Positions 5,476 through 22,123 of a stretch of 32,000 bases of DNA are shown piece by piece (position 1 is the stretch's first letter; every line of letters begins with the position of its first letter). Below the pieces are notes generated by a model. That model saw only the letters and a program-made list of their open reading frames with translations, did no database searches and was not told the origin of the DNA. The stretch lies in the NCBI GenBank assembly GCA_964475825.1, contig CAYYXT010000003.1, positions 96,570-128,569 of the forward strand, read 5' to 3'. Made by a program: the position numbers and the translations under genes. The stretch comes from an uncultured Nitrosopumilaceae archaeon (GTDB lineage Archaea; Thermoproteota; Nitrososphaeria; Nitrososphaerales; Nitrosopumilaceae).

Positions 5476-5676
5476 TTATGCTATTGGATGTTTGCCTGAG
5501 ATCAATTCATTACAAAACTCGTGTATGTTTTGCAGGTTACTTTCAACTATTTCATTGATTTGATTTTTTTCCGCATCATGTAATTGCCCTACAATAGTGG
5601 GCTGTACAATGACTGCCTTGGGATCATTTACTGGTCTTCCAATCACATTATACATCCATACACATACTTCATCCAA
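5476..5676 (-). CDS. Hypothetical protein (66 aa, TTG start)
   Basis: ORF only. No recognisable motif. No in-frame ATG before residue 8. Confidence 0.3.
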   Translation of the reverse strand: MDEVCVWMYNVIGRPVNDPKAVIVQPTIVGQLHDAEKNQINEIVESNLQNIHEFCNELISGKHPIA

Positions 5677-6121: not shown

Positions 6122-6244
6122 ATGCAAATCAAGTGTGCTGACTGTGATTGTCTTCCATCTGAATGTAAAACAAGTAAAACCCCAAAAGAATGCCCTAACT
6201 GTTCTTGGGAAGAATGTTGTTGCTGGAATGCAATTAATTTTTAA
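6122..6244 (+). CDS. Cys-rich 40-aa mini-protein, metallothionein-like (MQIKCADCDCLPSECKTSKTPKECPNCSWEECCCWNAINF)
   Basis: Own translation gives an ATG ORF with 9 Cys in 40 residues (CxxCxC, CxxC, CCC). A TATA-like TTATAGATAA lies about 21-30 nt upstream of the ATG. The frame differs from track ORF 6105..6293. Confidence 0.45.
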   Translation: MQIKCADCDCLPSECKTSKTPKECPNCSWEECCCWNAINF

Positions 6245-6262: not shown

Positions 6263-6763
6263 TTATCTTGCTATAATTCCAATGTCCATGTGATTATTCA
6301 TCATAGACATCATTGACTTTCCTTGTAGTATGGCATGTGTATGCATTGTATAGTATCCTTTCTCAGTTGGTGTAAATTTCACTTGATATTGACCAGACCC
6401 AATGTTTTCTGCTTGAATCATTCTTCCCATCATATCCATCATGGACATTTTATCCATAGATGCCATTGGTGCACCGTCTTCTATGTGAAGAATCACATCG
6501 GCATTATCTAGAGGATTACTTTTTTTATCCGTTACAAGCAAAATAATTTTAGATTCTTCTCCAACCTTTGCAACCTGACTTGAAGTTGTTTTTATTATGA
6601 CATCTTGTGGAATTTTATTCATCATTGATTGGCACATACCCATCATTCCACCCATTTTATTTTGAGACATCATTGATTGACCAGATTCAGAATATGCAGA
6701 TAGATAGAATGTACCGCTAGTAGATACAATAATTGTAACTAGTATAATCATCAATATTTTCAT
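6263..6763 (-). CDS. Secreted/anchored methionine-rich protein with FixH/YtkA-like Ig-fold core, putative Cu(I) binder
   Basis: N-terminal signal/anchor. About 24 Met in 166 aa by my count, clustered as SMMSQNKMGGMMGMCQSMM, PMASMDKMSMMDMMGRM and KSMMSMMNNHM. The core LLVTDKKSNPLDNADVILHIEDG...GSGQYQVKFTPTEKGYYTMHTH resembles YtkA/FixH-type domains. Confidence 0.75.
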   Translation of the reverse strand: MKILMIILVTIIVSTSGTFYLSAYSESGQSMMSQNKMGGMMGMCQSMMNKIPQDVIIKTTSSQVAKVGEESKIILLVTDKKSNPLDNADVILHIEDGAPMASMDKMSMMDMMGRMIQAENIGSGQYQVKFTPTEKGYYTMHTHAILQGKSMMSMMNNHMDIGIIAR

Positions 6764-6804
6764 TTCACTTTCTAATTGTATTTTCTATATATCAATATGG
6801 TATG

Positions 6805-6816
6805 TTACAATTGTAA
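6805..6816. promoter_or_regulatory. Palindromic operator TTACAATTGTAA (perfect) between the divergent Met-rich gene and dsbA-like 1
   Basis: Exact 12-bp palindrome. It lies 41 nt from the minus-strand ATG (6763) and 57 nt from the plus-strand TTG (6874). TATA-like boxes follow on both sides. Confidence 0.7.
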
Positions 6817-6873
6817 AGTATCATAAATAAATATACTAAATAAAAAACATCATCATTAAGGAGACAATGATTT

Positions 6874-7653
6874 TTGGACATAGAAAAAACACCAGATACT
6901 ACAAATGTAATTATAAAAAAATCCACTTTTAATAAATTAATTATTGGTGGGGTAGCAATTGCAATCATCTCTGCATTTTTTGGAGGTTATTTTGTTGGAG
7001 TAAACAGCATAGAGCCAGAACAAATCTACATTCGTAATGCAGAAGATGTTTTAGGCACAACTGAAAACAAGCAAGCAACTAAACCTCAAACTGTTTTGGC
7101 TTCAATAGACGATGATCCAATGATGGGAAATCTAAATGCCCAGATAACAATTATAGAATTTTCTGACTTTCAGTGTCCATTCTGTAAAAGATTCCATAGT
7201 GACACTCTTCCTCTAGTTCAAACAAATTACATTGATACAGGTAAAGTTAGGTTTGTTTATCGAGATTTTCCAATCCAAAGTATCCACCCTAATGCAATGC
7301 CAGCTGCACTTGCAACAGAATGTGCAGACGACCAAGGAAAGTTTTGGCCATACCACGATAAGATATTCCAGAATCAGGGCCAATGGAAAGATCTTGAATT
7401 GATACAAGCAGTAAATTTATTCAAACAATATGCTAGCGAATTACAGTTAAACGAAGATGAGTTTGGAACTTGTTTGGATTCAGGTAAATATCTTGATGAA
7501 GTAAATAATGATCTTCAAGATGGACAAGATTATGGCATTGAAGGCACGCCTGGATTTTTCATAGGAAATGATGAACTAGGTTATACCAAAGTTTCAGGAG
7601 CAAAACCCTATCAATCTTTCCAAACAGTTCTTGATGAGGCACTTGCAAAATGA
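6874..7653 (+). CDS. DsbA-family thiol:disulfide oxidoreductase, membrane-anchored (paralog 1)
   Basis: N-terminal TM anchor and thioredoxin fold with active site FQCPFCKRF. TTG is the first possible start after an in-frame stop. Paralog of 13460..14254. Confidence 0.85.
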   Translation: MDIEKTPDTTNVIIKKSTFNKLIIGGVAIAIISAFFGGYFVGVNSIEPEQIYIRNAEDVLGTTENKQATKPQTVLASIDDDPMMGNLNAQITIIEFSDFQCPFCKRFHSDTLPLVQTNYIDTGKVRFVYRDFPIQSIHPNAMPAALATECADDQGKFWPYHDKIFQNQGQWKDLELIQAVNLFKQYASELQLNEDEFGTCLDSGKYLDEVNNDLQDGQDYGIEGTPGFFIGNDELGYTKVSGAKPYQSFQTVLDEALAK

Positions 7654-7663
7654 GAGATAATCT

Positions 7664-7675
7664 TTACAATTGTAA
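7664..7675. promoter_or_regulatory. Palindromic operator TTACAATTGTAA (perfect) upstream of the BNR-propeller gene
   Basis: Exact match, 41 nt upstream of ATG 7717, followed by TTCTTTAATACA. Confidence 0.7.
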
Positions 7676-7716
7676 TCTATTGTTCTTTAATACATCACCA
7701 ACTTGGAATTGATTAG

Positions 7717-8703
7717 ATGAAAAAATTGCGATCATCAAAATCAAAAAATAAAAAATATGTATTACTTGGAATAGTATCTATCGTAGTCATTGGAGTTATT
7801 GTAAGTTATACGTCAAGTTCGCAAAATAATACGAGTGATCCAAAATCTAAACTCCTAGGATCCTGGATGGACGTACATGGTGTTGGTATGTTTCTTTCAG
7901 GAACTGATGACACGTTATATCTTGCAACCCACAACGGTCTATTCAAAAAAGAGTCAGACGGATGGAAACGAATAGGACAAGATACCGCAGACCTTATGGG
8001 TTTTTCTATTAATTCTAATGACGGAATAATGTACTCTAGTGGACACCCAGCTGCAATGAATGGTAACCTTGGTTTTAGGGTTAGTACTGATAAAGGAAAT
8101 TCATGGACAATGATTTCCAAAGTAAAAGAAAAACCAGTGGACTTTCACGCAATGACTGCAAGTTCAGCACAAAAAGGTTTGATTTACGGCTCACCTGGAG
8201 GAGGTTCTGAACTTTTTGTAACTGTGGATGAAGGTGCATCATGGAAATCACTTACTCCGCCAGACAGAATTATTTCACTTGCTGCAGATCCACTAAATCA
8301 AGACACAGTATACGCAGGAACAGTTTCTGGACTATATGTTAGTGATGACAAAGGACAACAATGGAAGCATGTTGATTCAAGTATAGAAAACGGTGCAATA
8401 ACGGGAATAGGATTTTCATCAGATGGAAAAACTATGTATATATTTTCAACATTAGATGGAAATGGATTAATTGCAATTTCCATTGATGGTGGAAGTACAA
8501 TGGTAAAAACGCAAGGTCAAATTACCAATACAGGAGCCGTGTTTAACTTTGCTCCAGGACGAAATGGAGAAATGTATGCGATAGCAATGGAAAAAGTCTC
8601 AAGTGGCATGGCTGCAAGTGTCTATATGACAAATGATGGGGGAATTACATGGATTCTAGAAGGCACCAATAATTCTGAATTGGCCATGACTAACAATACC
8701 TAA
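7717..8703 (+). CDS. Membrane-anchored BNR/Asp-box repeat beta-propeller protein (sialidase/Ycf48-like fold)
   Basis: N-terminal anchor. Four SxDxGxxW Asp-boxes: STDKGNSW, TVDEGASW, SDDKGQQW, TNDGGITW. Confidence 0.75.
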   Translation: MKKLRSSKSKNKKYVLLGIVSIVVIGVIVSYTSSSQNNTSDPKSKLLGSWMDVHGVGMFLSGTDDTLYLATHNGLFKKESDGWKRIGQDTADLMGFSINSNDGIMYSSGHPAAMNGNLGFRVSTDKGNSWTMISKVKEKPVDFHAMTASSAQKGLIYGSPGGGSELFVTVDEGASWKSLTPPDRIISLAADPLNQDTVYAGTVSGLYVSDDKGQQWKHVDSSIENGAITGIGFSSDGKTMYIFSTLDGNGLIAISIDGGSTMVKTQGQITNTGAVFNFAPGRNGEMYAIAMEKVSSGMAASVYMTNDGGITWILEGTNNSELAMTNNT

Positions 8704-8734
8704 GTTAACAAAAAGGAAGTCTATTGGATTAGTT

Positions 8735-8875
8735 TTATTTTTGGTATTTGCTTGGATTTTTTTCAAAAACGGCTTTACATGATGGGCAGCAAAAATGGAA
8801 TGTATTCCCATTATGTTCTAAAGTTACTGCATTGTGTTCTTCCACTTCCATTTTGCAGACAGGATCTATTTTCAT
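8735..8875 (-). CDS. YHS/TRASH-domain metal-binding mini-protein (46 aa), CopT/CopM-like chaperone candidate
   Basis: Own base-by-base translation: MKIDPVCKMEVEEHNAVTLEHNGNTFHFCCPSCKAVFEKNPSKYQK. This fits the DPVC...FCCPSC...F....P..Y YHS/TRASH pattern. The ORF is hidden antisense to track ORF 8748..8951. Confidence 0.7.
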   Translation of the reverse strand: MKIDPVCKMEVEEHNAVTLEHNGNTFHFCCPSCKAVFEKNPSKYQK

Positions 8876-8914
8876 TGTTATACAAGGTTTGATTCTTCAA
8901 ATAAAGTATGTTGT

Positions 8915-8926
8915 TTACAAATGTAA
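8915..8926. promoter_or_regulatory. Operator variant TTACAAATGTAA (half-sites intact, centre AT changed to AA) between the YHS mini-gene and the regulator gene
   Basis: It lies 39 nt from minus ATG 8875 and 38 nt from plus ATG 8965, with TATA-like boxes on both sides (TTTATTT / ATATAGATAATA). Confidence 0.55.
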
Positions 8927-8964
8927 GATGTATGATATAGATAATAGCTAGCCATAGGATAGCC

Positions 8965-9393
8965 ATGTCGTTTCCTCTGGATGAAACAGATATTGCAATA
9001 CTTGAATCTCTAATTCAGGACGGCAGAAAGTCATTTAGACAGATTTCAAGGGAAATCAAAGTAAGCACACCTACAGTACAGATACGTTATGACAGAATGA
9101 TAAACATGGGAATAATAAAATCAATTTCACCTATATTGGATATGAAAAAACTTGGTATGAAATTAGATCTTAGTAAAACGGATATCAAATCACAAGGAAC
9201 TGCAACTAAAAAACTCAATTCAAATTTACATGTAAAAATAAAATGTGATTATTGTGATAGAAAGATTGCTGAAAAACCTAGCATATTAAAAGTGGCAAAC
9301 ATTCAAAGATTTTTTTGTTGTCCTTCCTGTAAAGTTCTCTTTCAAGACAAATATCAACGAAGAATTAAGGCAATCATGAACTCACAGAAATAA
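8965..9393 (+). CDS. Lrp/AsnC-type HTH regulator with C-terminal TRASH metal-sensing domain (archaeal CopR-like copper regulator)
   Basis: N-terminal LDETDIAILESLIQDGRKSFRQISREIKVSTPTVQIRYDRM (HTH_AsnC). C-terminal CDYC-x20-CCPSC matches the TRASH consensus C-x2-C-x19-22-C-x3-C. Confidence 0.8.
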   Translation: MSFPLDETDIAILESLIQDGRKSFRQISREIKVSTPTVQIRYDRMINMGIIKSISPILDMKKLGMKLDLSKTDIKSQGTATKKLNSNLHVKIKCDYCDRKIAEKPSILKVANIQRFFCCPSCKVLFQDKYQRRIKAIMNSQK

Positions 9394-9408
9394 TTAAAAA
9401 TATTTTGA

Positions 9409-11091
9409 CTATTCTTGTTTTGAAAACTTTTTCTGCTTTACTATTTTAATTCTATTATACACAAATAATGCTACTAGTATTATTATTGCCGCTATTGCAG
9501 TGTTCTGTATTGTATCTTTGATGGCAAATTCTGGTTCAGGGTCAGTTTTCTTTATAGTTGGAGGTAGAATTGGTTTTGGTAGATCTACGTTTATTGTTAA
9601 CGGATAAAGTTTGGATATTGTCATAGTTTTATCAATCTGTTCTGATGCTGAGACTTGAATCATTATCTGATATGTGCCTGATTTGGCATTTTTGTCAACT
9701 GATACATCCAAAGTAGATTCTACATTATTTTCTTGATTCAAGTCAATTATGGAAGGAGTGGCAGTAAAAGAAATACCATTCAATCCCGAATCAGTCATGC
9801 CAACTAGTGAAATATTGATATTGTCTAGTGATGCCACGTCATTGCTATTTTTCAGATTATTTACGATAACTTTTACTTGCTTTGATGTCTCTTTTTCGGT
9901 AAAATCAATTTCTTCTTTGTCAACTTGTATATTAAAAGGAACAGAAATGCTCGTATCTAGGTAACCAATTTTATTTGCTAAAACTTCTGTAAACCACACT
10001 TTCCCATCTTTTGATGCATCAAGATAGACTACCGTAGAGAGTGGACCTGTTGGAACATCATACTCTGTAATGGTACCTGATACGTCAATTTTTGAGATCT
10101 TGTTTCCACCGTGTTGTGCAAAATAGATATTTCCATATTCATCAGTATCTATCTGACTTGGAAGAGTCTGTGGATATAGTGTGTTGGGGGATGTCCATAA
10201 TGATGTATATGTTTTCAAACTAGAATCTAATTCTGAGACAATTACCCTACTTGAGCCATGATCTGATAGAATCAGTTTTTCTACTCCTTTAGAGTCTTTG
10301 AATATTACAATTCCAAAAGGTGAGAAAAAGTCTGGCTTTGGCAGGCTGATCTCAGAAAGATTTGGAAATGTATCTGATTGCATGTTTGTAACATCAATAA
10401 TTAAAACACTATTCGAATAAGTAAGAGTTATCAGTAAAGAGCCCTTTTCATCAAATGCAAGAAATATCGGACCGCTGTTTTCTTTGATTTTATATTCTTT
10501 AATTTCATTTGTCTTTATATCTAAACTTGCAAATTTATCTGAACTTAGTTCTGTAAACCAAATCTTTGATTTATCTGGTGATAAAATTATTCCCATTGGT
10601 CCAGAATTTTCTGTCGGTATATTGATTGTGTCCATTTGTTGATTTTCTATATTGAATTTGCCTATAGAATTGGTTCTTGCATCTGTAAACCATATCATAT
10701 TTCTTGATTCATCATAAATGATATGCCCTCCAGAAAGATTAACAATCACATCTTTTGTATTGGTCTTTTTTAATATATCAAAATTTGAGAATTTTTCAGT
10801 GACTGGATCAAACTTGAAAATTGAACTTGCATTTTGTGTTGCATGATAGATCCAGGCATTTCCAGTTTTATCTGTTGTAATTCCCCTCAAACCAAAGTCA
10901 TCAACGGGAATAGAAATTTCTTTGATGAAATTGCTTTTTTTAGAGTATGTGACAAATTCATCATTGGATATTTCTTGCGCAAAAACATTACTGAATGATA
11001 AAAGTGAAAAAAGAATAACAGGCAGTAGAAATAATGCAGTTGATTGAATTCTAGTATTTTTCAACTTATTTTTCCACCTTATTTCCAGCAT
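9409..11091 (-). CDS. Surface beta-propeller protein, streptogramin-lyase (Vgb)/NHL-like repeats, with C-terminal Ig-like domain and TM anchor
   Basis: Signal peptide. Repeated hydrophobic-W/Y-F-T/A motif blades (MIWFTDARTNSIGKF, KIWFTELSSDKFASL, NIYFAQHGGNKISKI, KVWFTEVLANKIGYL). C-terminal AIAAIIILVALFVY anchor. Paralog of 20552..22123. Confidence 0.7.
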   Translation of the reverse strand: MLEIRWKNKLKNTRIQSTALFLLPVILFSLLSFSNVFAQEISNDEFVTYSKKSNFIKEISIPVDDFGLRGITTDKTGNAWIYHATQNASSIFKFDPVTEKFSNFDILKKTNTKDVIVNLSGGHIIYDESRNMIWFTDARTNSIGKFNIENQQMDTINIPTENSGPMGIILSPDKSKIWFTELSSDKFASLDIKTNEIKEYKIKENSGPIFLAFDEKGSLLITLTYSNSVLIIDVTNMQSDTFPNLSEISLPKPDFFSPFGIVIFKDSKGVEKLILSDHGSSRVIVSELDSSLKTYTSLWTSPNTLYPQTLPSQIDTDEYGNIYFAQHGGNKISKIDVSGTITEYDVPTGPLSTVVYLDASKDGKVWFTEVLANKIGYLDTSISVPFNIQVDKEEIDFTEKETSKQVKVIVNNLKNSNDVASLDNINISLVGMTDSGLNGISFTATPSIIDLNQENNVESTLDVSVDKNAKSGTYQIMIQVSASEQIDKTMTISKLYPLTINVDLPKPILPPTIKKTDPEPEFAIKDTIQNTAIAAIIILVALFVYNRIKIVKQKKFSKQE

Positions 11092-11118
11092 TAGTTATCA
11101 TAAAAAATCCAACGTATC

Positions 11119-11547
11119 CTATTTTTCAAGAAAAACTGAAACTGGCCCCAGAATATTTCCATGCGGATTGATTACTATCTGGATATTTTGTTCATTTGGA
11201 ATTTGGATTTTGTCTTGTCCTAGATATTTCCATGTATAGTAAGTTCCAGGCTCTTGTAGAGTTCCATTCAGCTTGAAATCTTCAAAAAATGAAAACGAAT
11301 CTCCTTTGAGTGCAACTGTCAAAACTTTAGGACTATCGCCACTTGAAACAAATCTAAATTTGTACGTTCCATTTTTGATAGTAAATGTATCTGAAAAAAT
11401 CCCATCCTCGTACAGTTTTGGATCAGCAAGTCTTACATGAAAAATTTTTGTGTTTTCTTTTTTCTCAGGTGATATAAGCGATATGGATGATATGGAAACT
11501 ATAACTGCAATTACAACAATACTTCCAAGAATCAATTTTTTCTTCAA
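11119..11547 (-). CDS. Hypothetical secreted/anchored protein (142 aa)
   Basis: N-terminal hydrophobic anchor and a beta-rich sequence. Lies between the TRASH mini-gene and the propeller gene on the same strand, so probably in one operon. TTG start. Confidence 0.55.
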   Translation of the reverse strand: MKKKLILGSIVVIAVIVSISSISLISPEKKENTKIFHVRLADPKLYEDGIFSDTFTIKNGTYKFRFVSSGDSPKVLTVALKGDSFSFFEDFKLNGTLQEPGTYYTWKYLGQDKIQIPNEQNIQIVINPHGNILGPVSVFLEK

Positions 11548-11615
11548 GTATAATCACTTAATTTTAATAGCATAGACTCTTTTTTCTAGATTCTGATTTA
11601 CACAACAAAATTATG

Positions 11616-11786
11616 CTAGCAGCAACCACCACGACGATCTCTATGACTCTCTTCATTTTGTCTTTGTTGTTCTCTTACTGCAAATTCTTCAGCATGCTGC
11701 TCAGAGCAGAGATATTTTCCGAATCTTTTGACTGCGGTATCTTTTTTGACTTCCACTCCACACATCGGACAATGTTTTTCAAACAT
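11616..11786 (-). CDS. TRASH/YHS-like metal-binding mini-protein (56 aa) with C-terminal GGCC
   Basis: Own base-by-base translation: MFEKHCPMCGVEVKKDTAVKRFGKYLCSEQHAEEFAVREQQRQNEESHRDRRGGCC. Shows the CPxCG...G.YLCSxxH..xF pattern. TATTAAAATA lies 23-32 nt upstream of the ATG. The ORF is hidden antisense to track ORF 11613..11795. Confidence 0.7.
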   Translation of the reverse strand: MFEKHCPMCGVEVKKDTAVKRFGKYLCSEQHAEEFAVREQQRQNEESHRDRRGGCC

Positions 11787-11825
11787 GTTTGGTAATGAAA
11801 CTAGTGCATATTTTAATACAGATCT

Positions 11826-11837
11826 TTACAATTGTAA
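11826..11837. promoter_or_regulatory. Palindromic operator TTACAATTGTAA (perfect) upstream of the minus-strand TRASH mini-gene operon
   Basis: Exact match, 39 nt from ATG 11786. Confidence 0.7.
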
Positions 11838-11878
11838 CATTAATCTTTAGACTAGAATTCAAAATCTATAAGTGTTTT

Positions 11879-11890
11879 TTACATTTGTAA
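11879..11890. promoter_or_regulatory. Operator variant TTACATTTGTAA (centre AT changed to TT) upstream of the Cys-containing membrane protein gene
   Basis: It lies 31 nt upstream of TTG 11922 and is followed by GTATTAAAATAC. Confidence 0.5.
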
Positions 11891-11921
11891 ACTTGTGTAT
11901 TAAAATACTTGGCTAAAACTA

Positions 11922-12272
11922 TTGAAAGTGATTAGTGTGTGGTGTATTGGGTGTAAAAGTCTCTCAAAAAAGAAAATCATTATTTTGGCTTTAGTAACAG
12001 CAGTAGCTGCTGTGGTTCTGTATTATTCATTTACAATAAATCCAGTAACAACACTTGCTATTTTGCCTTTTCTTCTTCCTTTCGTAGGTTGTATCGTAAT
12101 GTGTGGAGTTATACTGGGAGTTGTGTTTCTGGCAGGCCGTTTTTCAAAAAAATCTGATAAATCACATAATTCTTGTTGTACAAGTGAATCAACTGACATG
12201 AGCGAATCTATCACAAAACCAGAAATCAATACAAATAACAAAAAAAACAGTTCGTCTAACTTTACAAAATAA
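11922..12272 (+). CDS. Small membrane protein with Cys motifs (WCIGC, GCIVMCG, SCC); start uncertain
   Basis: Two predicted TM helices with an intramembrane CxxxC and a polar C-terminal tail with CC. The start is TTG 11922, or GTG 11928 or 11937. Confidence 0.5.
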   Translation: MKVISVWCIGCKSLSKKKIIILALVTAVAAVVLYYSFTINPVTTLAILPFLLPFVGCIVMCGVILGVVFLAGRFSKKSDKSHNSCCTSESTDMSESITKPEINTNNKKNSSSNFTK

Positions 12273-12295
12273 TCATATCTGTAAAAATCATTATC

Positions 12296-12307
12296 TTACA
12301 ATTGTAA
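12296..12307. promoter_or_regulatory. Palindromic operator TTACAATTGTAA (perfect) upstream of the rhodanese gene
   Basis: Exact match, 39 nt upstream of ATG 12347, followed by CATATTAAAATA. Confidence 0.7.
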
Positions 12308-12346
12308 ACGACCATATTAAAATACAATACAAATGATATCTATTCT

Positions 12347-13192
12347 ATGAATTATTCTAATCCTGAGGTTTTAGTAGATACTGAATGGGTTTCAAAAAAT
12401 ACACCATCTGAAAAAATACAACTTGTTGAAGTTGATTATGATCCTGAAAACGGATACAGAAAAGGTCACATTAAAGGTGCCACACTAATTTGGTGGAAAC
12501 GTGACATAAACGATCCAATAACCAGAGACATCATTAGTAAAAAACAGTTTGAAGATCTTATGAACAGAAATGGAATTACCGCAGATAGTCAAGTTGTACT
12601 TTATGGGGATTTCAACAATTGGTTTGCAGCATTTGTTTTCTGGGTCTTCAAATATTATGGTCACAAAAATATCAAAATAATGAATGGAGCTAGAAAAAAA
12701 TGGGAGATGGAAAAAAGACCATACACAATAGAAGAACCCAAAGTCACACCCACTGTATATGTTGCTCAGCCGCCAAATGAAGGTCTTAGGGCTTATCTCT
12801 TTGATGTCAAACGTGCACTAGCCAAAAATGACACTGTTCTAGTTGATGTAAGATCACCAAAAGAGTTCACAGGCGAGATAACCGCACCGCCAGAATATCC
12901 AATGGAACATGCACAAAGAGGGGGACATATTCCAGGTGCAAATAATATTCCATGGGCTATGGCAGTAAATGATACTGATGGAACTTTCAAGACATATGAA
13001 GAATTGAAACAAAACTATGTCCCAAAAGGCGTAACTCCTGACAAGGATGTAATCTGTTATTGTAGAATTGGTGAAAGATCCTCGCACAGTTGGTTTGTCC
13101 TAAAGTATCTACTTGGATACCCTCAAGTACGAAACTATGATGGTTCTTGGACTGAATGGGGCAACATGATTGGAAATCCTGTAGAGAAATAA
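12347..13192 (+). CDS. Two-domain rhodanese (thiosulfate/3-mercaptopyruvate sulfurtransferase)
   Basis: Tandem rhodanese domains. The catalytic loop CYCRIGERSS fits the CRxGxR[ST] thiosulfate-sulfurtransferase signature. C-terminal YDGSWTEWG. Confidence 0.9.
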   Translation: MNYSNPEVLVDTEWVSKNTPSEKIQLVEVDYDPENGYRKGHIKGATLIWWKRDINDPITRDIISKKQFEDLMNRNGITADSQVVLYGDFNNWFAAFVFWVFKYYGHKNIKIMNGARKKWEMEKRPYTIEEPKVTPTVYVAQPPNEGLRAYLFDVKRALAKNDTVLVDVRSPKEFTGEITAPPEYPMEHAQRGGHIPGANNIPWAMAVNDTDGTFKTYEELKQNYVPKGVTPDKDVICYCRIGERSSHSWFVLKYLLGYPQVRNYDGSWTEWGNMIGNPVEK

Positions 13193-13390
13193 CTGTTTTA
13201 AAAAAATTCATACATTTTCTATGCAAAATAATGTTCATTGTTGGAATTGAGAAAGACAATTATTAATTGATAGTAATTTTGCACCAACAGGTAATTGCAC
13301 ACTTGCTATTAGCGCTACAGACGGATTGGTAACAAAATCGGTATTTGTGAATATGATGATTAATTGAAAATCAAAACCTCGATTATCACT

Positions 13391-13402
13391 TTACAATTGT
13401 AA
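13391..13402. promoter_or_regulatory. Palindromic operator TTACAATTGTAA (perfect) upstream of dsbA-like 2
   Basis: Exact match, 57 nt upstream of TTG 13460. This is the same spacing as at dsbA-like 1. Confidence 0.7.
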
Positions 13403-13459
13403 TGTATAAGAGATAAATATCCTGATTAAAAAATATTATCATTAAGGAGATAATGGTTT

Positions 13460-14254
13460 TTGGACATAGATGATATAGAAAAAACAACAAATACTGCAAA
13501 TATAACTATAAAAAAATCCACTTTTAATAAATTAATTATCGGTATTGTAGCAATTGCAATTATCTCTGCATTTTTTGGAGGATATGTTTTGGGAAACATC
13601 ATGCCTTTCTCTACAAACATTTTAGAATCTCAAAAACAAAATTCGGATGGCATACCCGTATCCACTATAGTAGAACAAGAGCTTCCAATTGCAAAGACTA
13701 CACCAACATCTGAAATTCCTGTGTATGCAAAATATGTGGGAGCATCTTCTGCTACTATAAATATAATTGAATTTGGGGATTTCCAGTGCCCATTTTGTAA
13801 GAGATTTTTTGATCAAACAGAACCGGAGATCAAAAAAGAGTATATTGATACTGGAAAAGCAAGGTTTTCCTTTATTGGGATAAGTATTACCGGTCCAGAT
13901 TCATTGCCTCTTGCTGCTAGTTCTTGGTGTGCTAATGAGCAAGAAAAGTATTATCAATATCATAATTATATCTACACAAATCAGGGAGATGAAAATTCTG
14001 GTTGGGGAACATATGAAAAAATAAAGATTCTTGCAAAAAACATACCTGATCTTGATATGGAATCATTCAATACTTGTCTGGACAGTAAAAAGTATGAACC
14101 GCGAGTAAACGAACTAACGCAACTCAGTGCAAATATTGGAGTGACAGGAACACCTACAACATTTATCGGAAATTCAGAAAATGGTTACACAAAGATTACT
14201 GGAGCCCAACCGTATGAGGTTTTCAAAAATACCATCGACATGTACATACAATAG
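13460..14254 (+). CDS. DsbA-family thiol:disulfide oxidoreductase, membrane-anchored (paralog 2)
   Basis: FQCPFCKRF active site, the same anchor sequence as paralog 1, and a TTG start directly after an in-frame stop. Confidence 0.85.
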   Translation: MDIDDIEKTTNTANITIKKSTFNKLIIGIVAIAIISAFFGGYVLGNIMPFSTNILESQKQNSDGIPVSTIVEQELPIAKTTPTSEIPVYAKYVGASSATINIIEFGDFQCPFCKRFFDQTEPEIKKEYIDTGKARFSFIGISITGPDSLPLAASSWCANEQEKYYQYHNYIYTNQGDENSGWGTYEKIKILAKNIPDLDMESFNTCLDSKKYEPRVNELTQLSANIGVTGTPTTFIGNSENGYTKITGAQPYEVFKNTIDMYIQ

Positions 14255-14272
14255 ATTCCAAACCAATTATAA

Positions 14273-14692
14273 TTACATCCTGAGTGTTTTGCTAACTCTA
14301 AAACTGTACATTGGCAAGTAGGTAAATGCCATTATTACTGTGCCAAGAATTTGTAGCCAGAGAGAATGTGTGTGATACATTCCAGCAAACATGAAAACTG
14401 CACCTATTGCTGCCACTGGAATCAATCTTGTCTTTTTTCTATACCACATACCTACAAGCATTGAGGCAAATGAAACTAAAAGAACTGTCATGCCTGTTGT
14501 GCTATCAAAGAATTTCATCATTTTATCAACAAAACTATCCGAATTATCATACATCGTATTCATGTTATTTAGAGCAGCATTTGAAATTGTTGCAGCCGCC
14601 ATTCCAATAGTACTAAACCCTATTAGAATAGTGCATAAAATCATGCCAATTATTCCAAAGGAGCAAACACATTTGCACGTGGAGATTCTCAT
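14273..14692 (-). CDS. Four-TM membrane protein with N-terminal CKCVC motif (MerC-like topology, speculative)
   Basis: 139 aa with about 4 hydrophobic segments, a Cys cluster at residues 6-10, and Met/His-rich loops. Lies 81 nt downstream of the Zn-ribbon mini-gene on the same strand. Confidence 0.55.
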   Translation of the reverse strand: MRISTCKCVCSFGIIGMILCTILIGFSTIGMAAATISNAALNNMNTMYDNSDSFVDKMMKFFDSTTGMTVLLVSFASMLVGMWYRKKTRLIPVAAIGAVFMFAGMYHTHSLWLQILGTVIMAFTYLPMYSFRVSKTLRM

Positions 14693-14773
14693 CTTTTGCG
14701 CTTAAATTGCTTGTTCTATAAATTTTTCAATTTAGCCAAGTAATTTGTCCAGTCTTCTATAAGGCATTCATGT

Positions 14774-14941
14774 CTAGTCTCGGTGTTCAAAACATAAAAT
14801 CGCGTCGCAGTCATTGCAGTAAATTGTATCTTTTTCTATTTTGATGTTAGTTGATCCGCATCTTGTACAAATTCTAATTTCATCTACTTGACAATGCTTC
14901 ATTGAATCTGGTTTTTCTACGTGTTGGCTTTCCACTGGCAT
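14774..14941 (-). CDS. Zinc-ribbon mini-protein (55 aa; C-x2-C-x13-C-x2-C)
   Basis: Own base-by-base translation: MPVESQHVEKPDSMKHCQVDEIRICTRCGSTNIKIEKDTIYCNDCDAILCFEHRD. Divergent from copA. An alternative start is M14. Confidence 0.5.
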   Translation of the reverse strand: MPVESQHVEKPDSMKHCQVDEIRICTRCGSTNIKIEKDTIYCNDCDAILCFEHRD

Positions 14942-14974
14942 TACATGTTTTTTGATTTATTTAATGATTGTACT

Positions 14975-14986
14975 TTACAATTGTAA
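14975..14986. promoter_or_regulatory. Palindromic operator TTACAATTGTAA (perfect) between the Zn-ribbon mini-gene and copA
   Basis: Exact match, 33 nt from minus ATG 14941 and 43 nt from the proposed copA TTG 15030. TATA-like boxes on both sides (ATTAAATAAAT / CATATTAATTAT). Confidence 0.7.
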
Positions 14987-15029
14987 AGATGTCATATTAA
15001 TTATCAGAAGTTCATCATTATTAATCAGA

Positions 15030-17486
15030 TTGAAACAAGATGCAAACACTCTGAATGCAGGCATTAGAAAAACTGCCCTAAAAATTGGAGGCATGCACTG
15101 TGCTGGCTGTATAACTGCAATTCAAAACCACATGTCAGATATTGAGGGCATAACAAAATGTGAGGTAAATCTGGCGGCTGAAAAAGCCGTTTTAGAGTTT
15201 GATTCATCATTAATTGATCTAGAGAAAATTGAAAACGCACTAAAAGATATTGGATATTCTACTGTCTATGAAAAATTCTCAGTAAAGATAGCAGCAATTA
15301 CGGATTCCAGTGATTCAGAAAAATTAGAAAAGAGATTACTGGAAATAGAAGGAGTCAAAGAAGCATCTGTTAATTATGGAAATAATCAAGTTGTCATTAA
15401 ATACAATTCTACTCTACTCTCAATTTCAGATCTTAGGAGAATAATTAACAAATTAGGATTTCAAATTTTAAGTGAAGATGACATCGTAACATCAGAAGAA
15501 ATTGAAGCAAAGAAACTAAAAAAACTATTCATCATCGGACTTGTGTTTTCAATTCCTGTCATGTTTCTTGGTTATCCAGAATTTTTTTCATTCATTCCAT
15601 TTGCAGGAACTGGAGTTGCAGCATTGATAATTTTTGTTTGTGCAAGTATAGTCCAGTTTGTTACTGGAAGCAGGTTCTACATTGGAGCATACAGAATAAC
15701 TAAAATGAAGTCTGCAAACATGGATACTCTGGTTGTTACTGGAACTACAGCCGCATATCTATTTAGTGTGTTTAACACATTTCCAACACCTGCTTGGCAC
15801 AACATCTACTATGATGCAGCTTCCATTGTGATAACTTTCATAATTCTTGGTAAGTATCTTGAAAACAAGACCAAGGGAAAGGCATCATCAATAATTAAAA
15901 AGATGTTAGAACTTCAACCAAAGACTGCAAGAATCAGAAAAAATGAAACAGAGACTGAAATTTCAATTGAATTAATCCAGCCTGGAGATATCTTGATCAT
16001 AAAACCCGGTGAAAAAATTCCCGTAGATAGTATAGTAGTTGAAGGTCACTCAGCAGTTGATGAATCTATGATAACTGGTGAATCAATGCCTGTAGAAAAG
16101 AAACCAGGCGATGTTGTGATTGGGAGTACAATAAACAAGGAGGGTGCTCTTTTGGTAAGAGCTGAAAAGGTTGGAAGCGATACAATGCTCTCACAGATAA
16201 TGAATCTTGTTGAAGACGCAATGGGAAGAAAGCCACCGATGCAACGCCTTGTTGACAAGATTGCGGGATATTTTGCAATTATAGTTCTAATTGTTGCCAC
16301 TGTAACATTTGTGTCGTGGTATTTTGTTACCCCGCCTGGAGAACATCATATTGCAGCTGCATTAATTCCAGCAGTAGCCATTCTAGTTGTTGCATGTCCA
16401 TGTGCACTTGGTCTTGCAACTCCAACTGCAGTAATGGTGGGAATGGGGAAAGGTGCCCAGTATGGGGTAATCTTTAAAGGCGGTGATGCCCTTGAGATGC
16501 TCAGCAAAATAAAGATTGCAGTATTTGACAAAACCGGAACTCTTACTGAAGGAAAGCCGCAAGTAATTGATTTGCTATCTTTAAAACCGATTACGCTAAC
16601 AGATGGTAATATTATACCTAATTCAGAAGAAAAATTTTTAGAGTTTGCTGCAATTGCTGAAAAAAATTCTGAACATCCATTGGCAAAATCAATTGTAAAA
16701 AAAGCAAGAGAATTAAATCTTGATCTACAAAACCCAACAGACTTTGTTGCAATTCCTGGAAGAGGTGTTAGGGCAACATACAACGGAAACACAATACTCG
16801 TTGGCAGCCCAAAACAGATAGAATTAGAAGGAGTTGAGATCAGTACAGCAGAAGAACATATCTCACAATTCCAACAGGAGGGAAAGACTGTCGTACTTGT
16901 AGCCCTTAACAGTCAATTAGTCGGATTGATTTCATTGCTGGATTCTCCAAAACAGAGTGCAAAGTCTGCTATTATGGCATTAAAAGACAACGGAGTGGAA
17001 GTAGTGATGCTTACGGGAGATAACAAAAGAACAGCTGCCACAATAGCTAATGAGCTTTCCATAGATAGAGTGATTGCCAATGTAATGCCATCTGAGAAGG
17101 TTAATGTGATAAAAGAATTACAGAGTGGTGGAAAAAAGGTTGCAATGATTGGGGATGGCATAAATGACGCTGCAGCAATAATGCAATCCGATGTTGGTAT
17201 CGCAATAGGAAGTGGTACAGATGTTGCAATAGAATCTGGCAAAGTTATTCTTTTAAGAGATGATCTAAACAGTGTAGTAACTGCCATAGAGATAAGCAAA
17301 AAAACGGTTGGTAAAATAAAACAAAATCTAATTTACGCATTTGCATATAATACAATACTCATACCAGTTGCAGGTATTGGTTTGCTTTACCCAGCTTTAG
17401 CAGGGTTGGCAATGGCTGCAAGCTCTGTTTCTGTCACAAGCAGCTCATTGCTTCTAAAAAGATGGTCTCCAAAGAGGCAAAAGTAA
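15030..17486 (+). CDS. copA: Copper-translocating P1B-type ATPase
   Basis: HMA domain GMHCAGC, TM CPC motif (VACPCALGLATP), phosphorylation site FDKTGTLT, SEHPLA, and hinge GDGINDAAA. The track start 14952 reads through the promoter/operator. I prefer the in-frame TTG at 15030, but the start is uncertain. Confidence 0.95.
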   Translation: MKQDANTLNAGIRKTALKIGGMHCAGCITAIQNHMSDIEGITKCEVNLAAEKAVLEFDSSLIDLEKIENALKDIGYSTVYEKFSVKIAAITDSSDSEKLEKRLLEIEGVKEASVNYGNNQVVIKYNSTLLSISDLRRIINKLGFQILSEDDIVTSEEIEAKKLKKLFIIGLVFSIPVMFLGYPEFFSFIPFAGTGVAALIIFVCASIVQFVTGSRFYIGAYRITKMKSANMDTLVVTGTTAAYLFSVFNTFPTPAWHNIYYDAASIVITFIILGKYLENKTKGKASSIIKKMLELQPKTARIRKNETETEISIELIQPGDILIIKPGEKIPVDSIVVEGHSAVDESMITGESMPVEKKPGDVVIGSTINKEGALLVRAEKVGSDTMLSQIMNLVEDAMGRKPPMQRLVDKIAGYFAIIVLIVATVTFVSWYFVTPPGEHHIAAALIPAVAILVVACPCALGLATPTAVMVGMGKGAQYGVIFKGGDALEMLSKIKIAVFDKTGTLTEGKPQVIDLLSLKPITLTDGNIIPNSEEKFLEFAAIAEKNSEHPLAKSIVKKARELNLDLQNPTDFVAIPGRGVRATYNGNTILVGSPKQIELEGVEISTAEEHISQFQQEGKTVVLVALNSQLVGLISLLDSPKQSAKSAIMALKDNGVEVVMLTGDNKRTAATIANELSIDRVIANVMPSEKVNVIKELQSGGKKVAMIGDGINDAAAIMQSDVGIAIGSGTDVAIESGKVILLRDDLNSVVTAIEISKKTVGKIKQNLIYAFAYNTILIPVAGIGLLYPALAGLAMAASSVSVTSSSLLLKRWSPKRQK

Positions 17487-17509
17487 AAACCAGCAAAAGG
17501 GATCATACA

Positions 17510-18097
17510 ATGAAAGCAATACAATTTTCAGACAAATATTTGGTCTTGTGGATACTACCGTTTTTGTTTGTAATTGCTTTTTATTCCACGGTGTCAGAAA
17601 AACCAGATGTTACAATTGACAGATTCGATGAGAAATTTATCATCCTGAGTAATGCCCATACGAATTATTGCGCATCTGCAGATTTCTTGAACTCCAAGTC
17701 TGATGATGACAGACTGCAGGGATCTTGTTGTTCCAAGATGGACTCTCACAGATACACAGAGCAAATTGAGGGCCTCAAGCAATATTCGTACATTGATGTA
17801 ATTCCTTCAGATCCTTATGACATCAAGGCATCTCTTGCAAAAACCCTTGTGTCCTATGATAAAAACATCATATTGAACACACAGCAGCAAAAAGTGTATG
17901 ATGATGCGATGAAAATGTCATCAGAAGGTGGACCATGTTGTTGCAAGTGTTGGAGATGGACTGCCTTTGAAGGACAGGCAAAATATCTAATCACAGAATA
18001 TAATTTTGATGAAAAGCAAATCGCATATGTGTGGGATCTGGAAGATGGTTGCGGTGGGAAAGGACATACAGATCATTTTGAGCCAAAACCTTCATAG
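17510..18097 (+). CDS. Membrane-anchored Cys-rich protein of unknown function, co-transcribed with copA
   Basis: ATG 17510 lies 23 nt after the copA stop. N-terminal TM helix. Cys clusters GSCCSKMD, GGPCCCKCWRW and DGCGGKGHTDH. Confidence 0.65.
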   Translation: MKAIQFSDKYLVLWILPFLFVIAFYSTVSEKPDVTIDRFDEKFIILSNAHTNYCASADFLNSKSDDDRLQGSCCSKMDSHRYTEQIEGLKQYSYIDVIPSDPYDIKASLAKTLVSYDKNIILNTQQQKVYDDAMKMSSEGGPCCCKCWRWTAFEGQAKYLITEYNFDEKQIAYVWDLEDGCGGKGHTDHFEPKPS

Positions 18098-18201: not shown

Positions 18202-18428
18202 ATTCATTGAATCTCAGAGAATTATTCAATCAGTCAAAGTATGTTTTAATTATTCAGGCGTGATTCAGTGTTGAATATACAATAAATTCATGCGTGAATA
18301 GTGAATATTTTCACATTCACCAGTTGTCACGCGTGAATGTCTCATAATGAATCATTCACCATTCAAAAAAACATTCACTCGCATTCAAGAGTACCGACAT
18401 GATTCACGCATGCCATTCAAGAGTACCG
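18202..18428. repeat. Dense array of ATTCA/TGAAT pentamers with nested palindromes and direct repeats
   Basis: 18 copies by my count in 227 nt. An 11-nt inverted repeat CATGCGTGAAT (18289-18299) / ATTCACGCATG (18402-18412). Palindromes ATTCATTGAAT (18202-18212), TCACGCGTGA (18327-18336) and TGAATCATTCA (18348-18358). A 15-nt direct repeat CATTCAAGAGTACCG (18382-18396, 18414-18428). Confidence 0.7.
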
Positions 18429-18681
18429 TATATTTTCACATGAAAAATATTAACGTACTATCTATCGTACACTTTTTGTACGATTACAGGCATCAATCAT
18501 TCAATAATATATATTTTAAAAGAGAGTGCATTGTAGATTTTACCAATATGACTGACGGGGTTTTTGCCAGCAGTGGCTTCAGAACCCGCAGGTCTGCTGG
18601 GAGATATTATACGACTTGCCATATTAAAATAAATTTAAAAGATAAATTTTAACCCTATCAACGATTATCAACTCTGGTTAA

Positions 18682-20551: not shown

Positions 20552-22123
20552 GTGAATAAAAAAGGACTAATGGTTGCTATCTTTTTTGGAACAATAATGC
20601 TGACATCTTTGGCTGCAGGAGTACTTCTTAACAACACTCCAACACCATCTGAAATAACTCCTACTGGCACCCCAGCTGATAATTTCCCTGATGCTCAACG
20701 TGCACAATACTGTGGTTCAGGAGATGCAAAATCAACAGCATTTGTCAAAGAATACACCATTCCAACTGCTTGTACAAATCCTTTGGCAATAGTTGCTGAC
20801 TATGATGGAAATGTGTGGTTTGCACAAACCAACACGGGTAAACTAGCAAAATTTGATCCTACTACTGAATCTTTTACTGAATTTGATAATACTCTCTGGC
20901 CAAAAAATGGTCGCTCGATGATCTGGGGGATTGATTATTCTCCTGACGGTTCACTGTGGTTTACAGACGAATCTTATGATTCTGTATGGCGATTCTCCAC
21001 ACAAGATGAAAAATATCAACAAATAGATTATCCTTCTGAAGGTAATTCATTACCACAAAAATTGAAAGTTGATGGTTCACAAATAGTGATAAATGATTTT
21101 ACTGGAAACAAAATCACCTTTTTAGATCCTACTCAATCCAATGATAACTTGAGATATCTGAGTCTCCCTTCTCCTGTTAATGGTTCTGTAACTGGTGATT
21201 TTGCAATTGATACTGATAAAAATGTCTGGTATACAAATTGGCTTTTCCAACAAGGCGGAGTTTTGGTAAAATTTGATCAAGAAGGCTATCGCAACTCTAT
21301 AGCTAACGTTAATGGAGAATCTCTTCCTGCACTTGATTACATCGAAATATTCCAGTTACCTCCTGAATTACTTACTCCAAACGGTATGGCTGTATCTGAT
21401 GATGGTATGATTTGGTTAGCAGACACATCAAGCTCTGCTATCTTTAACTTTGATCCTGCCACACAACAATTTACTCAGTATGTTACATCTGATCCAAAAA
21501 TATCTACATATGGTAACTCTACTGGAGTTATAAAATCTCCAATATCTAGACCATATTGGATTAAAACTAATTCTGATGGACAATTAGTTTTCAATGAACA
21601 AACCGCAAATAGTATTGCAGTCATGGATCCAAAATCTGAATCACTCGTAGAATATCTGATTCCATCAAAAAATCCATCTTGGGGTGACTGTGATGTTGAT
21701 TCTGATTGCGGCTTGGCTCAAATCTTTGATTTTACCACACACGGTGATAAAATCTGGTTTACTGAATGGGTGGAAAATAATATTGGTGTAGTTGATACTT
21801 CTATTGCACTTCCATTTGGAATTGAACTTGACTCTAAAGATATTTCACTTGTACCCGGCGAGTCAAAGAACTTGTCTTTCATAATATCTCCGCAGCAAGA
21901 CTTGTCTGATGTATCTCTGATATTGTCAGATCCTCACAACTTTTTGAATGTCATTTCAAATGTATCTGATCCTTTCCAATTAAATTCTGATGCTCCTAGA
22001 CCTGTGGAGGTGACAATTTCTGCATCTGATGAGGCAACTCCTGGAAAATACAAAGTATTGCTAGGAGCTCAAATTGAAGATGTTTCAATAAGTAAATTTG
22101 TTACAGTGACAATATTACCGTGA
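20552..22123 (+). CDS. Secreted beta-propeller protein, streptogramin-lyase (Vgb)/NHL-like repeats, with C-terminal Ig-like domain
   Basis: Signal peptide. Blades NVWFAQTNTGKLAKF, SLWFTDESYDSVWRF, MIWLADTSSSAIFNF and KIWFTEWVENNIGVV. Paralog of 9409..11091 but lacks the C-terminal TM anchor. GTG start. Confidence 0.7.
   Translation: MNKKGLMVAIFFGTIMLTSLAAGVLLNNTPTPSEITPTGTPADNFPDAQRAQYCGSGDAKSTAFVKEYTIPTACTNPLAIVADYDGNVWFAQTNTGKLAKFDPTTESFTEFDNTLWPKNGRSMIWGIDYSPDGSLWFTDESYDSVWRFSTQDEKYQQIDYPSEGNSLPQKLKVDGSQIVINDFTGNKITFLDPTQSNDNLRYLSLPSPVNGSVTGDFAIDTDKNVWYTNWLFQQGGVLVKFDQEGYRNSIANVNGESLPALDYIEIFQLPPELLTPNGMAVSDDGMIWLADTSSSAIFNFDPATQQFTQYVTSDPKISTYGNSTGVIKSPISRPYWIKTNSDGQLVFNEQTANSIAVMDPKSESLVEYLIPSKNPSWGDCDVDSDCGLAQIFDFTTHGDKIWFTEWVENNIGVVDTSIALPFGIELDSKDISLVPGESKNLSFIISPQQDLSDVSLILSDPHNFLNVISNVSDPFQLNSDAPRPVEVTISASDEATPGKYKVLLGAQIEDVSISKFVTVTILP

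Follow-up and report, generated by a model that had tools for sequence, protein, structure and literature searches.

The same short palindrome is found at promoter after promoter of a copper/thiol gene island in an uncultured Nitrosopumilaceae archaeon, and the question raised by this locus is whether it is an operator and, if so, which protein reads it. The stretch analyzed (32,000 nucleotides, positions 96,570 to 128,569 of contig CAYYXT010000003.1, assembly GCA_964475825.1) will be called the window. An earlier note, made from the letters of the window alone, had proposed the palindrome as the operator of an undescribed regulon. We hold with good confidence that TTACA-WW-TGTAA is the operator of CopR-type regulators, i.e., proteins combining an AsnC/Lrp-type winged helix-turn-helix (HTH) with a TRASH domain, one of which is encoded in the island itself (8965-9393). 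This palindrome-regulator pair is conserved across ammonia-oxidizing archaea, in at least four genera.

An exact search of the window returned TTACAATTGTAA at the six positions given in the earlier note (6805, 7664, 11826, 12296, 13391, and 14975) and at no other, against a mean of 0.01 in shuffled sequence; six copies were reached in none of 100 shuffles. Allowing any W-W center (TTACAWWTGTAA) retrieved the two variants also claimed there, at 8915 (TTACAAATGTAA) and 11879 (TTACATTTGTAA), which makes eight sites where a second-order Markov model predicts 0.06. The copy number is thus far above chance, as had been argued. Checked against the gene positions, every one of the eight is indeed intergenic, and all are confined to 6.8-15.0 kb; the exact search found zero copies in the remaining ca. 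24 kb of the window. Two one-mismatch matches were dismissed as chance, the one at 6899 because it lies within the DsbA-1 coding region and the one at 29288 because neither a TATA box nor a gene start lies at the proper distance from it.

For comparison we used 80 loci (1.05 Mb) from species-representative genomes, mostly metagenome-assembled, that were fetched with a profile of 24 aligned regulator homologues and belong to Nitrosarchaeum, Nitrosotenuis, Nitrosotalea, Nitrosopumilus, and other Nitrosopumilaceae. A motif search in related genomes and a look at orthologous promoters had been suggested as checks in the earlier note, and both, made on these loci, came out in favor of the operator. 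TTACAWWTGTAA occurs 141 times in these loci versus 1.1-1.3 expected, and 139 of these sites are intergenic (two fall inside called genes), though ca. 79% of the sequence is coding. In 67 of the 83 copies of the regulator, which share 43-99% identity with the window protein, the exact motif lies 31-46 nt upstream of the gene's own start codon; six further copies with one mismatch, four of them with an AC or AG center in a perfect ACTTTACA-NN-TGTAAAGT, raise this to 73. Site density falls off with distance from the regulator gene, and most genes of these loci (846 of the 1015 called, 83%) start without a site nearby. With 149 sites pooled, the palindrome widens to 18 bp, A(0.72) Y(0.83) T(0.86) TTACA-WW-TGTAA A R T, that is, A-Y-T-TTACAWWTGTAA-A-R-T, and its central dinucleotide is mostly AT (95 cases), otherwise AA/TT (53) or TA (one).

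The genes that do have a site belong to the same families over and over again, despite shuffled gene order and protein identities of 40-80%. The motif precedes all 36 CopA homologues (33 exact, three with one mismatch), all homologues of the rhodanese (6/6), of the TRASH-like mini-protein (11/11), of the Met-rich protein (6/6), and of the Cys membrane protein (4/4), five of the six of the Zn-ribbon protein, seven of the 9-10 of DsbA, and five of the eight of the BNR propeller. The homologues of the Vgb-like, 142-aa, and Cys-rich 211-aa proteins have no site of their own, which fits the operon positions proposed for these genes. A recurrent extra target, with 20 cases, is a membrane protein of ca. 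330 aa of the DsbD_TM family; others are an HtrA-like protease, a Kelch-type protein, a multicopper oxidase, an ArsR-type HTH protein, and a TFB-like gene. Divergent genes have a common site in 61 instances, the pairs including regulator/CopA (20), regulator/DsbD-like (16), regulator/YHS (9), and BNR/Met-rich (5). Divergence of regulator and CopA is the classic layout of archaeal cop clusters. The comparison shows palindrome and HTH+TRASH genes to be conserved together, the palindrome marking a conserved set of promoters. With the motif kept at CopA, DsbA, DsbD-like, and rhodanese promoters, the idea put forward in the earlier note, that the regulon would link copper efflux to extracytoplasmic thiol and sulfur proteins, gains support.

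Some of these loci deserve separate mention. The motif stands upstream of genes for a TFB-like protein of 314 aa and a multicopper oxidase of 559 aa, as well as for an HtrA-like protease and a Kelch-type protein (locus L065, 18184; L030, 16548; L027, 10677 and 13312), and with the first two the regulon may reach a paralogue of a general transcription factor and copper enzymes. One contig labeled "Candidatus Saccharibacteria bacterium" (L032, CAZYLF010000005.1) has six palindromes and a complete cop regulon of the thaumarchaeal type (CopA, regulator, rhodanese, BNR, Vgb-like) and is probably mis-binned. A metagenome-wide scan with the 18-mer AYTTTACAWWTGTAAART gave 120 stretches, most of which come from organisms of other kinds (GC 0.20-0.69; recombinases, XRE repressors, phage genes) and only ca. 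21 of which are thaumarchaeal cop-type loci, too mixed a set to measure genome-wide specificity.

The position of the palindrome within the promoters is as regular as its sequence. In the 11 promoter directions of the window the motif ends 31-57 nt from the nearest start codon, the range given in the earlier note, and a TATA-like octamer follows in all 11 at exactly +10 to +17 past the 12-mer. When 157 target promoters were aligned on the motif, a TTTAAATA-type TATA box appeared at the same fixed +10 to +17 (column frequencies T.51, T.65, T.65, A.67, A.61, A.53, T.78, A.81), which agrees with the placement just upstream of the TFB-recognition element (BRE) and TATA box that had been proposed. 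The gap between motif and TATA box, 9 nt past the 12-mer or 6 nt past the 18-mer, is not conserved; these 6 nt should be the expected BRE position, the palindrome lying directly upstream of the BRE slot. Motif and start codon are most often 38-39 nt apart, which leaves 21-22 nt between TATA box and ATG. With the usual archaeal TATA-to-start spacing, used here for placing transcription starts, transcription is predicted to begin at or next to the start codon, and the fixed TATA position then puts the center of the palindrome near -45. The transcripts of the regulon would be leaderless, except those of the DsbA genes, for which a 5' leader of ca. 18 nt carrying GGAG is predicted. At non-regulon genes the TATA peak at -32 to -24 is weak, so that leaderless transcription is deduced mainly from the regulon promoters themselves. 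The candidate operator sites of the window, with the TATA box of each promoter direction, are as follows; TTAAAATA is the TATA box at 11809-11816, 11900-11907, and 12317-12324.

6805-6816: site 1 (TTACAATTGTAA), common to the divergent Met-rich (-) and DsbA-1 (+) genes; TATA 6788-6795 (-) and 6826-6833 (+)
7664-7675: site 2, for the BNR-propeller gene; TATA 7685-7692 (CTTTAATA)
8915-8926: site 3 (TTACAAATGTAA), common to the YHS mini-gene (-) and the regulator gene (+); TATA 8898-8905 (-) and 8936-8943 (+)
11826-11837: site 4, for the operon of TRASH-like mini-gene, 142-aa, and Vgb-like genes (-); TATA 11809-11816
11879-11890: site 5 (TTACATTTGTAA), for the Cys-containing membrane protein gene (+); TATA 11900-11907
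12296-12307: site 6, for the rhodanese gene (+); TATA 12317-12324
13391-13402: site 7, for DsbA-2 (+); TATA 13412-13419
14975-14986: site 8, common to the Zn-ribbon mini-gene and CxCxC membrane protein (-) and to CopA and the Cys-rich protein (+); TATA 14958-14965 (-) and 14996-15003 (+)

Three sites are, as described before, common to divergent pairs (6763/6874, 8875/8965, 14941/15030), and site 3 is the predicted autoregulatory site of the regulator gene. The genes served were assigned to families with Pfam, with which 38 window proteins were scanned:

6263-6763 (-): Met-rich exported protein with a YtkA-like Ig fold (Pfam score below threshold), target
6874-7653 (+): DsbA-1, membrane-anchored thioredoxin fold with a CPFC motif (Pfam DsbA/Thioredoxin_4), target
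7717-8703 (+): BNR/sortilin-type beta-propeller with an N-terminal anchor (Pfam), target
8735-8875 (-): YHS-domain mini-protein of 46 aa (PF04945, E 5.3e-13), putative metallochaperone, divergent from the regulator gene
8965-9393 (+): regulator of 142 aa, HTH_AsnC + Arc_trans_TRASH (Pfam)
9409-11786 (-): three-gene operon of TRASH-like mini-protein, 142-aa exported protein, and Vgb-lyase-like propeller
11616-11786 (-): TRASH-like mini-protein, assigned from its CxxC...CxxxH Cys pattern alone
11119-11547 (-): 142-aa exported protein, second gene of the operon
9409-11091 (-): Vgb-lyase-like propeller (Pfam), third gene of the operon
11922-12272 (+): Cys-containing membrane protein of 116 aa, target
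12347-13192 (+): tandem-domain rhodanese (sulfurtransferase; Pfam), target
13460-14254 (+): DsbA-2, CPFC motif, paralogue of DsbA-1 (Pfam DsbA/Thioredoxin_4), target
14273-14941 (-): unit of the Zn-ribbon mini-protein (14774-14941) and then the CxCxC membrane protein (14273-14692)
15030-17486 (+): CopA, P1B ATPase with two HMA domains (Pfam); unit 15030-18097
17462-18097 (+): Cys-rich 211-aa gene, overlapping the end of CopA

Pfam agrees with the gene calls of the earlier note for the DsbAs, the BNR propeller, the YHS protein, the regulator, the Vgb-like protein, the rhodanese, and CopA. The operon membership given there to the Vgb-like, 142-aa, and Cys-rich genes is in keeping with the site-free homologues mentioned above. 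CopA contains CPC, N-x6-YN-x4-P, and M-x2-SS, which we take to be the signatures of P1B-1 Cu(I) exporters in the Arguello classification. Among the genes of the remaining window, all free of sites, are those for Usp, an amino-acid permease, Hsp20, PCMT, a CBS protein, PTH2, TruD, a ferredoxin-reductase-type protein, Fic, and others, besides a second Vgb-lyase-like propeller (523 aa, 20552-22123, +) that lies outside the island, lacks a palindrome, and is paralogous in type to 9409-11091.

The regulator itself has a winged HTH at residues 5-52 (HTH_AsnC-type PF13404, E 9.8e-13; PF13412, E 1.2e-12) and an Arc_trans_TRASH domain (PF08394) at 93-131, scoring 35.2 bits against a cut-off of 27, with the pattern C94-x2-C97-x20-C118-x3-C122, all of whose cysteines are invariant in 24 homologues. 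Its best relatives among solved structures are LrpC, PH0140, PH1519, and LrpA, and Pfam gave no PF01037 (AsnC_trans_reg, RAM) match in it. An AlphaFold model built on the 24-sequence alignment (mean predicted local distance difference test score, pLDDT, 71.5) has a three-helix HTH at 7-47, a linker at 53-83 predicted to be disordered (pLDDT <50, no secondary structure), and from ca. residue 90 a TRASH domain of a beta-hairpin plus helices. Among 1.84 billion representatives there are 1462 relatives at E <=0.001; those sampled at ca. 195-215 aa have HTH, PF01037, and TRASH, and those sampled at ca. 140-160 aa have HTH and TRASH without RAM. By this domain content the window regulator is a two-domain, RAM-less form of the CopR family. 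The recognition region, DGRKSFRQI[SA]RE..STPTV..RY.RL, varies hardly or not at all across the paralogues, an invariance that parallels that of the DNA motif.

Single genomes encode two or three paralogous HTH+TRASH regulators (L001/L040, L002/L043, L003/L048, L027/L030, and L065), ca. 97%, 52%, and 44% identical to the window protein, and each has the same upstream palindrome and recognition region. The paralogues probably compete for the same sites or share them, to judge from these common features. A subgroup with the sequence QIGREIK..RYRRLVNLGF (L053, L025, L052, L067) lacks a canonical site upstream of its own gene. Upstream of the regulator in L053 there is instead TTGCAAATGCAA, a symmetric A-to-G/T-to-C variant, and protein and operator may co-vary here. 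In the window, 14 kb from the regulator, a stand-alone RAM-domain protein of 76 aa is encoded (23383-23613, +; PF01037, E 2.8e-11); that it might supply an oligomerization module in trans is pure speculation.

By the domains of its regulator, the linkage to copA and mini-chaperones, and the position of the site, this is a CopR-type system, of a kind already known. The closest parallel is CopR of Pyrococcus furiosus (PF0739; Gruenberger et al., 2021, PMC7830388), likewise an Lrp/AsnC-type HTH with a TRASH domain, whose site is a palindrome with an A/T center directly upstream of the BRE at copper-induced promoters, lies between divergent copR/copA-type promoters, and defines a regulon that exceeds the cop cluster and includes thiol-redox proteins. 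The claim of an undescribed regulon therefore holds in part: a full-text literature search, with most subscription journals outside its reach, gave no description of a thaumarchaeal motif or regulon, but CopR regulons whose palindrome immediately precedes the BRE are already known in archaea, from P. furiosus (PMC7830388). What appears new compared with known CopR systems is the absence of RAM, a different operator, and a much larger and mostly extracytoplasmic regulon. The P. furiosus consensus is a weakly conserved 15-mer, TTNNCAWWWTGNNAA (PMC7830388), unlike the near-invariant 12/18-bp palindrome found here; it has 0 matches in the window, the local motif being 3 bp shorter (TT-A-CA-WW-TG-T-AA), and was ruled out as a description of the island sites. 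According to the literature P. furiosus CopR is an Lrp-like octamer even without its TRASH domain and wraps ca. 150 bp, while the window protein has no RAM; the RAM content of PF0739 and SSO2652 is taken here from the literature and from relatives of ca. 200 aa. The targets also differ, being mostly extracytoplasmic here (DsbA, DsbD-like, propellers, Met-rich).

In the Sulfolobales cop cluster (copR/copT-copT/copM-copA), too, an HTH+TRASH regulator goes with a TRASH-only mini-chaperone and a CPx Cu-ATPase, and copA is induced by copper (Ettema, 2006; Villafane, 2011), as summarized in PMC7830388 and PMC3595675. In those summaries the cluster is a tandem of three genes, whereas the island has ca. 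19 genes and 11 promoter directions, each with a candidate operator, in support of the reach beyond a Sulfolobus-type cluster claimed in the earlier note. Unlike in this tandem layout, the regulator in the Nitrosopumilaceae loci is mostly divergent from CopA, DsbD-like, or YHS mini-genes. Halobacterium salinarum VNG1179C (PMC4236453) is another TRASH-bearing Lrp-family copper regulator, which activates a Cu efflux ATPase. According to its description it is a full-length feast/famine regulatory protein (FFRP), with RAM plus a fused TRASH, and differs in this from the window protein. The same source lists the TRASH fusion for Crenarchaeota and Euryarchaeota only. Among ammonia-oxidizing archaea, Nitrososphaera viennensis has a CopA2-CopZ-CopT cluster with a CopT 38% identical to SSO2652, and its DsbD-family, BNR "sialidase," and CopA2 genes, families also among the predicted targets here, respond to copper (Reyes et al., 2020, PMC7785015). 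A motif, TTCSGSMTTTGWACYANT, was proposed there for genes induced by copper limitation, no operator was assigned to CopT, and in the authors' words the regulation of cop genes "remains an open question" (PMC7785015).

Outside the archaea, the bacterial cop box of Enterococcus hirae, Lactococcus lactis, and Streptococcus pneumoniae (O'Brien et al., 2020, PMC7253601) has a core, TACANNTGTA, that is likewise present in the island 12-mer. The operator core KACANNTGTA is fitted by all eight sites, which contain TACAWWTGTA, and in L. lactis the operators of copB and yahC have the sequence GTTTACAATTGTAAAC, of which 14 bp (TTTACAATTGTAAA) are identical to the thaumarchaeal site; both are experimentally bound by L. 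lactis CopR (PMC7253601). The cop box controls a copper ATPase, as predicted also for the island. CopY, however, is a repressor on sigma-70 promoters with a winged helix of the BlaI/MecI type and a CxCx4CxC tail (PMC7253601), a winged-helix family different from that of the window regulator. The refined CopY 16-mer RNYKACANNYGTMRNY matches 0/8 sites (its sole match in the window, at 3037, is within a permease gene) and was ruled out as a description of them, no BlaI/MecI/CopY-type protein appeared in the Pfam scan of the 38 window proteins, and the regulator has no similarity to solved CopY/BlaI chains even at E up to 10. The likeness looks like convergence or coincidence.

How would such a system work? 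We propose that a dimer of the regulator sits on the palindrome, centered ca. 45 bp upstream of the predicted transcription start and abutting the 6-bp BRE slot and the TATA box, a single site acting on two mirror-image promoters where genes are divergent. By analogy with known CopR proteins, Cu(I) on the four TRASH cysteines would alter the effect of the bound protein on TFB/TBP recruitment, favoring recruitment. This would switch on the regulator's own gene, the Cu(I) exporter CopA, the YHS and TRASH mini-chaperones, the exported Met-rich and beta-propeller proteins, the DsbA/DsbD-type thiol-disulfide proteins, and the rhodanese. Without RAM-mediated octamers or cooperative wrapping, a single high-affinity dimer site would be needed, which could account for an operator far better conserved than the Pyrococcus motif. 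On the sign of regulation we lean only slightly, favoring activation by copper over copper-released repression.

The most serious competitor keeps operator and regulator and changes that sign: apo-protein bound beside the BRE would block TFB/TBP until released by Cu(I). Such a model has been put forward for Thermococcus onnurineus CopR and, originally, for Sulfolobus solfataricus CopT (PMC7830388, PMC3595675), so that repression or Cu-induced release is on record for homologues. The 18-bp palindrome stops exactly at the BRE slot, where a bound dimer could sterically exclude TFB, and TATA boxes as strong-looking as TTAAAATA may make an activator unnecessary. Yet the site is never over the TATA/start region, the usual place of archaeal repressor sites, its strict phase to the TATA box suits recruitment better than occlusion, and three of the four studied CopR homologues activate copA (PMC7830388); we consider pure repression possible but the less likely of the two. 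It would be more surprising if the palindrome were bound by another transcription factor encoded elsewhere, the HTH+TRASH genes being merely members of the regulon. An ArsR-type HTH gene and the TFB-like gene do bear the motif in a few loci, and the 10-bp core is the operator of bacterial CopY/BlaI-type proteins. However, the motif stands at the regulator gene itself across genera, its invariance parallels that of the recognition helix, and neither a CopY/BlaI-type protein among the scanned proteins nor detectable similarity of the regulator to the solved ones was found, all of which makes this explanation improbable.

Two further explanations do without a dedicated regulator. A generic promoter element, e.g., a BRE variant read by a TFB paralogue, would account for the fixed distance from the TATA box. 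Thaumarchaea encode many TFB paralogues, and one TFB-like gene (in L065) bears the motif. But such an element should hardly be missing from the large majority of genes called in the related loci and from every gene of the window outside 6.8-15 kb, nor would it be a perfect palindrome parted from the TATA box by a non-conserved 6-nt slot where the BRE itself belongs, with a single copy serving two divergent promoters; we regard it as very unlikely. Least probable of all is a non-regulatory repeat, i.e., duplicated promoters, ends of miniature mobile elements, or recombination sites for cassette shuffling. Gene order around the sites does vary between genomes, as if cassettes had moved, the island is flanked by two fragments of one S-adenosylmethionine (SAM) synthetase gene, and the upstream regions of DsbA-1 and DsbA-2 are paralogous. 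Still, the likeness between sites stops after the 18 bp and the TATA box, orthologous promoters retain their sites even between genera whose proteins are 40-60% identical, and no recombinase, transposase, or target duplications were seen at the island.

Several points nevertheless weigh against an operator of CopR-type regulators acting as proposed. Since the loci were selected via the regulator, the enrichment close to it (21 sites per 10 kb within 200 bp of its start, ca. 1.1 up to 4 kb, and 0.13 at 8-10 kb) is conditional on that choice, and gene starts were set by simple open reading frame rules. RAM, the oligomerization domain of Lrp-type regulators, is missing and the linker is predicted to be disordered, so that dimerization would have to take another route; metal-bridged TRASH domains are one candidate. 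With paralogues that have the motif and recognition region in common, the sites are not assignable to the 8965-9393 protein alone, so that its ownership of them, as given in the earlier note, stands for the family with its upstream motifs and not for this single member. The sign is mixed among CopR homologues, with activators in S. solfataricus 98/2, H. salinarum, and P. furiosus and repressors in T. onnurineus and S. solfataricus P2 (PMC7830388, PMC3595675). Finally, DsbD, BNR "sialidase," and CopA2 of N. viennensis rise under copper limitation, with a different motif proposed (PMC7785015), and the regulon might therefore serve the copper supply of the pseudo-periplasm besides detoxification.

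The pseudo-periplasm is the compartment of the copper enzymes of ammonia oxidation. A more daring combination, which we offer tentatively and think rather unlikely to hold as a whole, is that the RAM-less HTH+TRASH proteins work as single dimers and that Cu(I) on their TRASH cysteines governs dimer assembly or activity. With their paralogues they would make up the main copper-economy switch of Nitrosopumilaceae, for detoxification and for pseudo-periplasmic copper delivery and handling (CopA, DsbA/DsbD, Met-rich, propellers, rhodanese). The operator would then be an independent re-invention of the Firmicutes cop box, or a copy of it retained after regulator replacement.

The surroundings of the island present some features of their own. 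Fragments of a SAM-synthetase gene (PF01941) flank it on the same strand, at 5476-5676 (-; profile 334-395) and 18497-18622 (-; profile 290-322); they are consecutive and non-overlapping, the first ca. 289 codons are missing, and neither fragment is present in the fetched parts of L001-L007. The ca. 12.8-kb island sits within this remnant as if inserted. As a mobile element, however, it was ruled out, with no tRNA, Rfam family, compositional shift, or att-like direct repeats between the flanks and no integrase among the scanned proteins. The right edge (18289-18430) is non-coding and dense in GTGAAT/ATTCAC repeats; GCGTGAAT has three copies there, the only ones in the window, CATGCGTGAAT is the perfect complement of ATTCACGCATG, 102 nt away, and CATTCAAGAGTACCG occurs twice, 32 nt apart. 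At the left edge an open reading frame of 40 codons with 12 cysteines (6122-6244, +; MQIKCADCDCLPSECKTSKTPKECPNCSWEECCCWNAINF), without an upstream palindrome or a Pfam match, could be a metallothionein-like peptide. Farther away, a zinc alcohol dehydrogenase is split over neighboring same-strand open reading frames (ADH_zinc_N 29901-30263, -; ADH_N 30603-30932, -), and this gene is probably disrupted.

Ammonia-oxidizing archaea depend on copper enzymes, are harmed by too little as well as too much copper, and have almost no genetics, and we know of no validated pair of transcription factor and operator in them. What is offered here is a precise 12/18-bp candidate operator at a fixed ca. -45, a small and purifiable candidate sensor, and a regulon predicted over at least four genera, with which the control of cop genes in ammonia oxidizers, called open in 2020 (PMC7785015), becomes directly testable. 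The CopR family has a minimal two-domain form without the Lrp oligomerization domain, which would imply a simpler mechanism than the wrapping of DNA around octamers. Extracytoplasmic thiol-disulfide and sulfurtransferase proteins would be tied to copper control in archaea, and the regulon supplies marker genes for copper stress in environmental metatranscriptomes.

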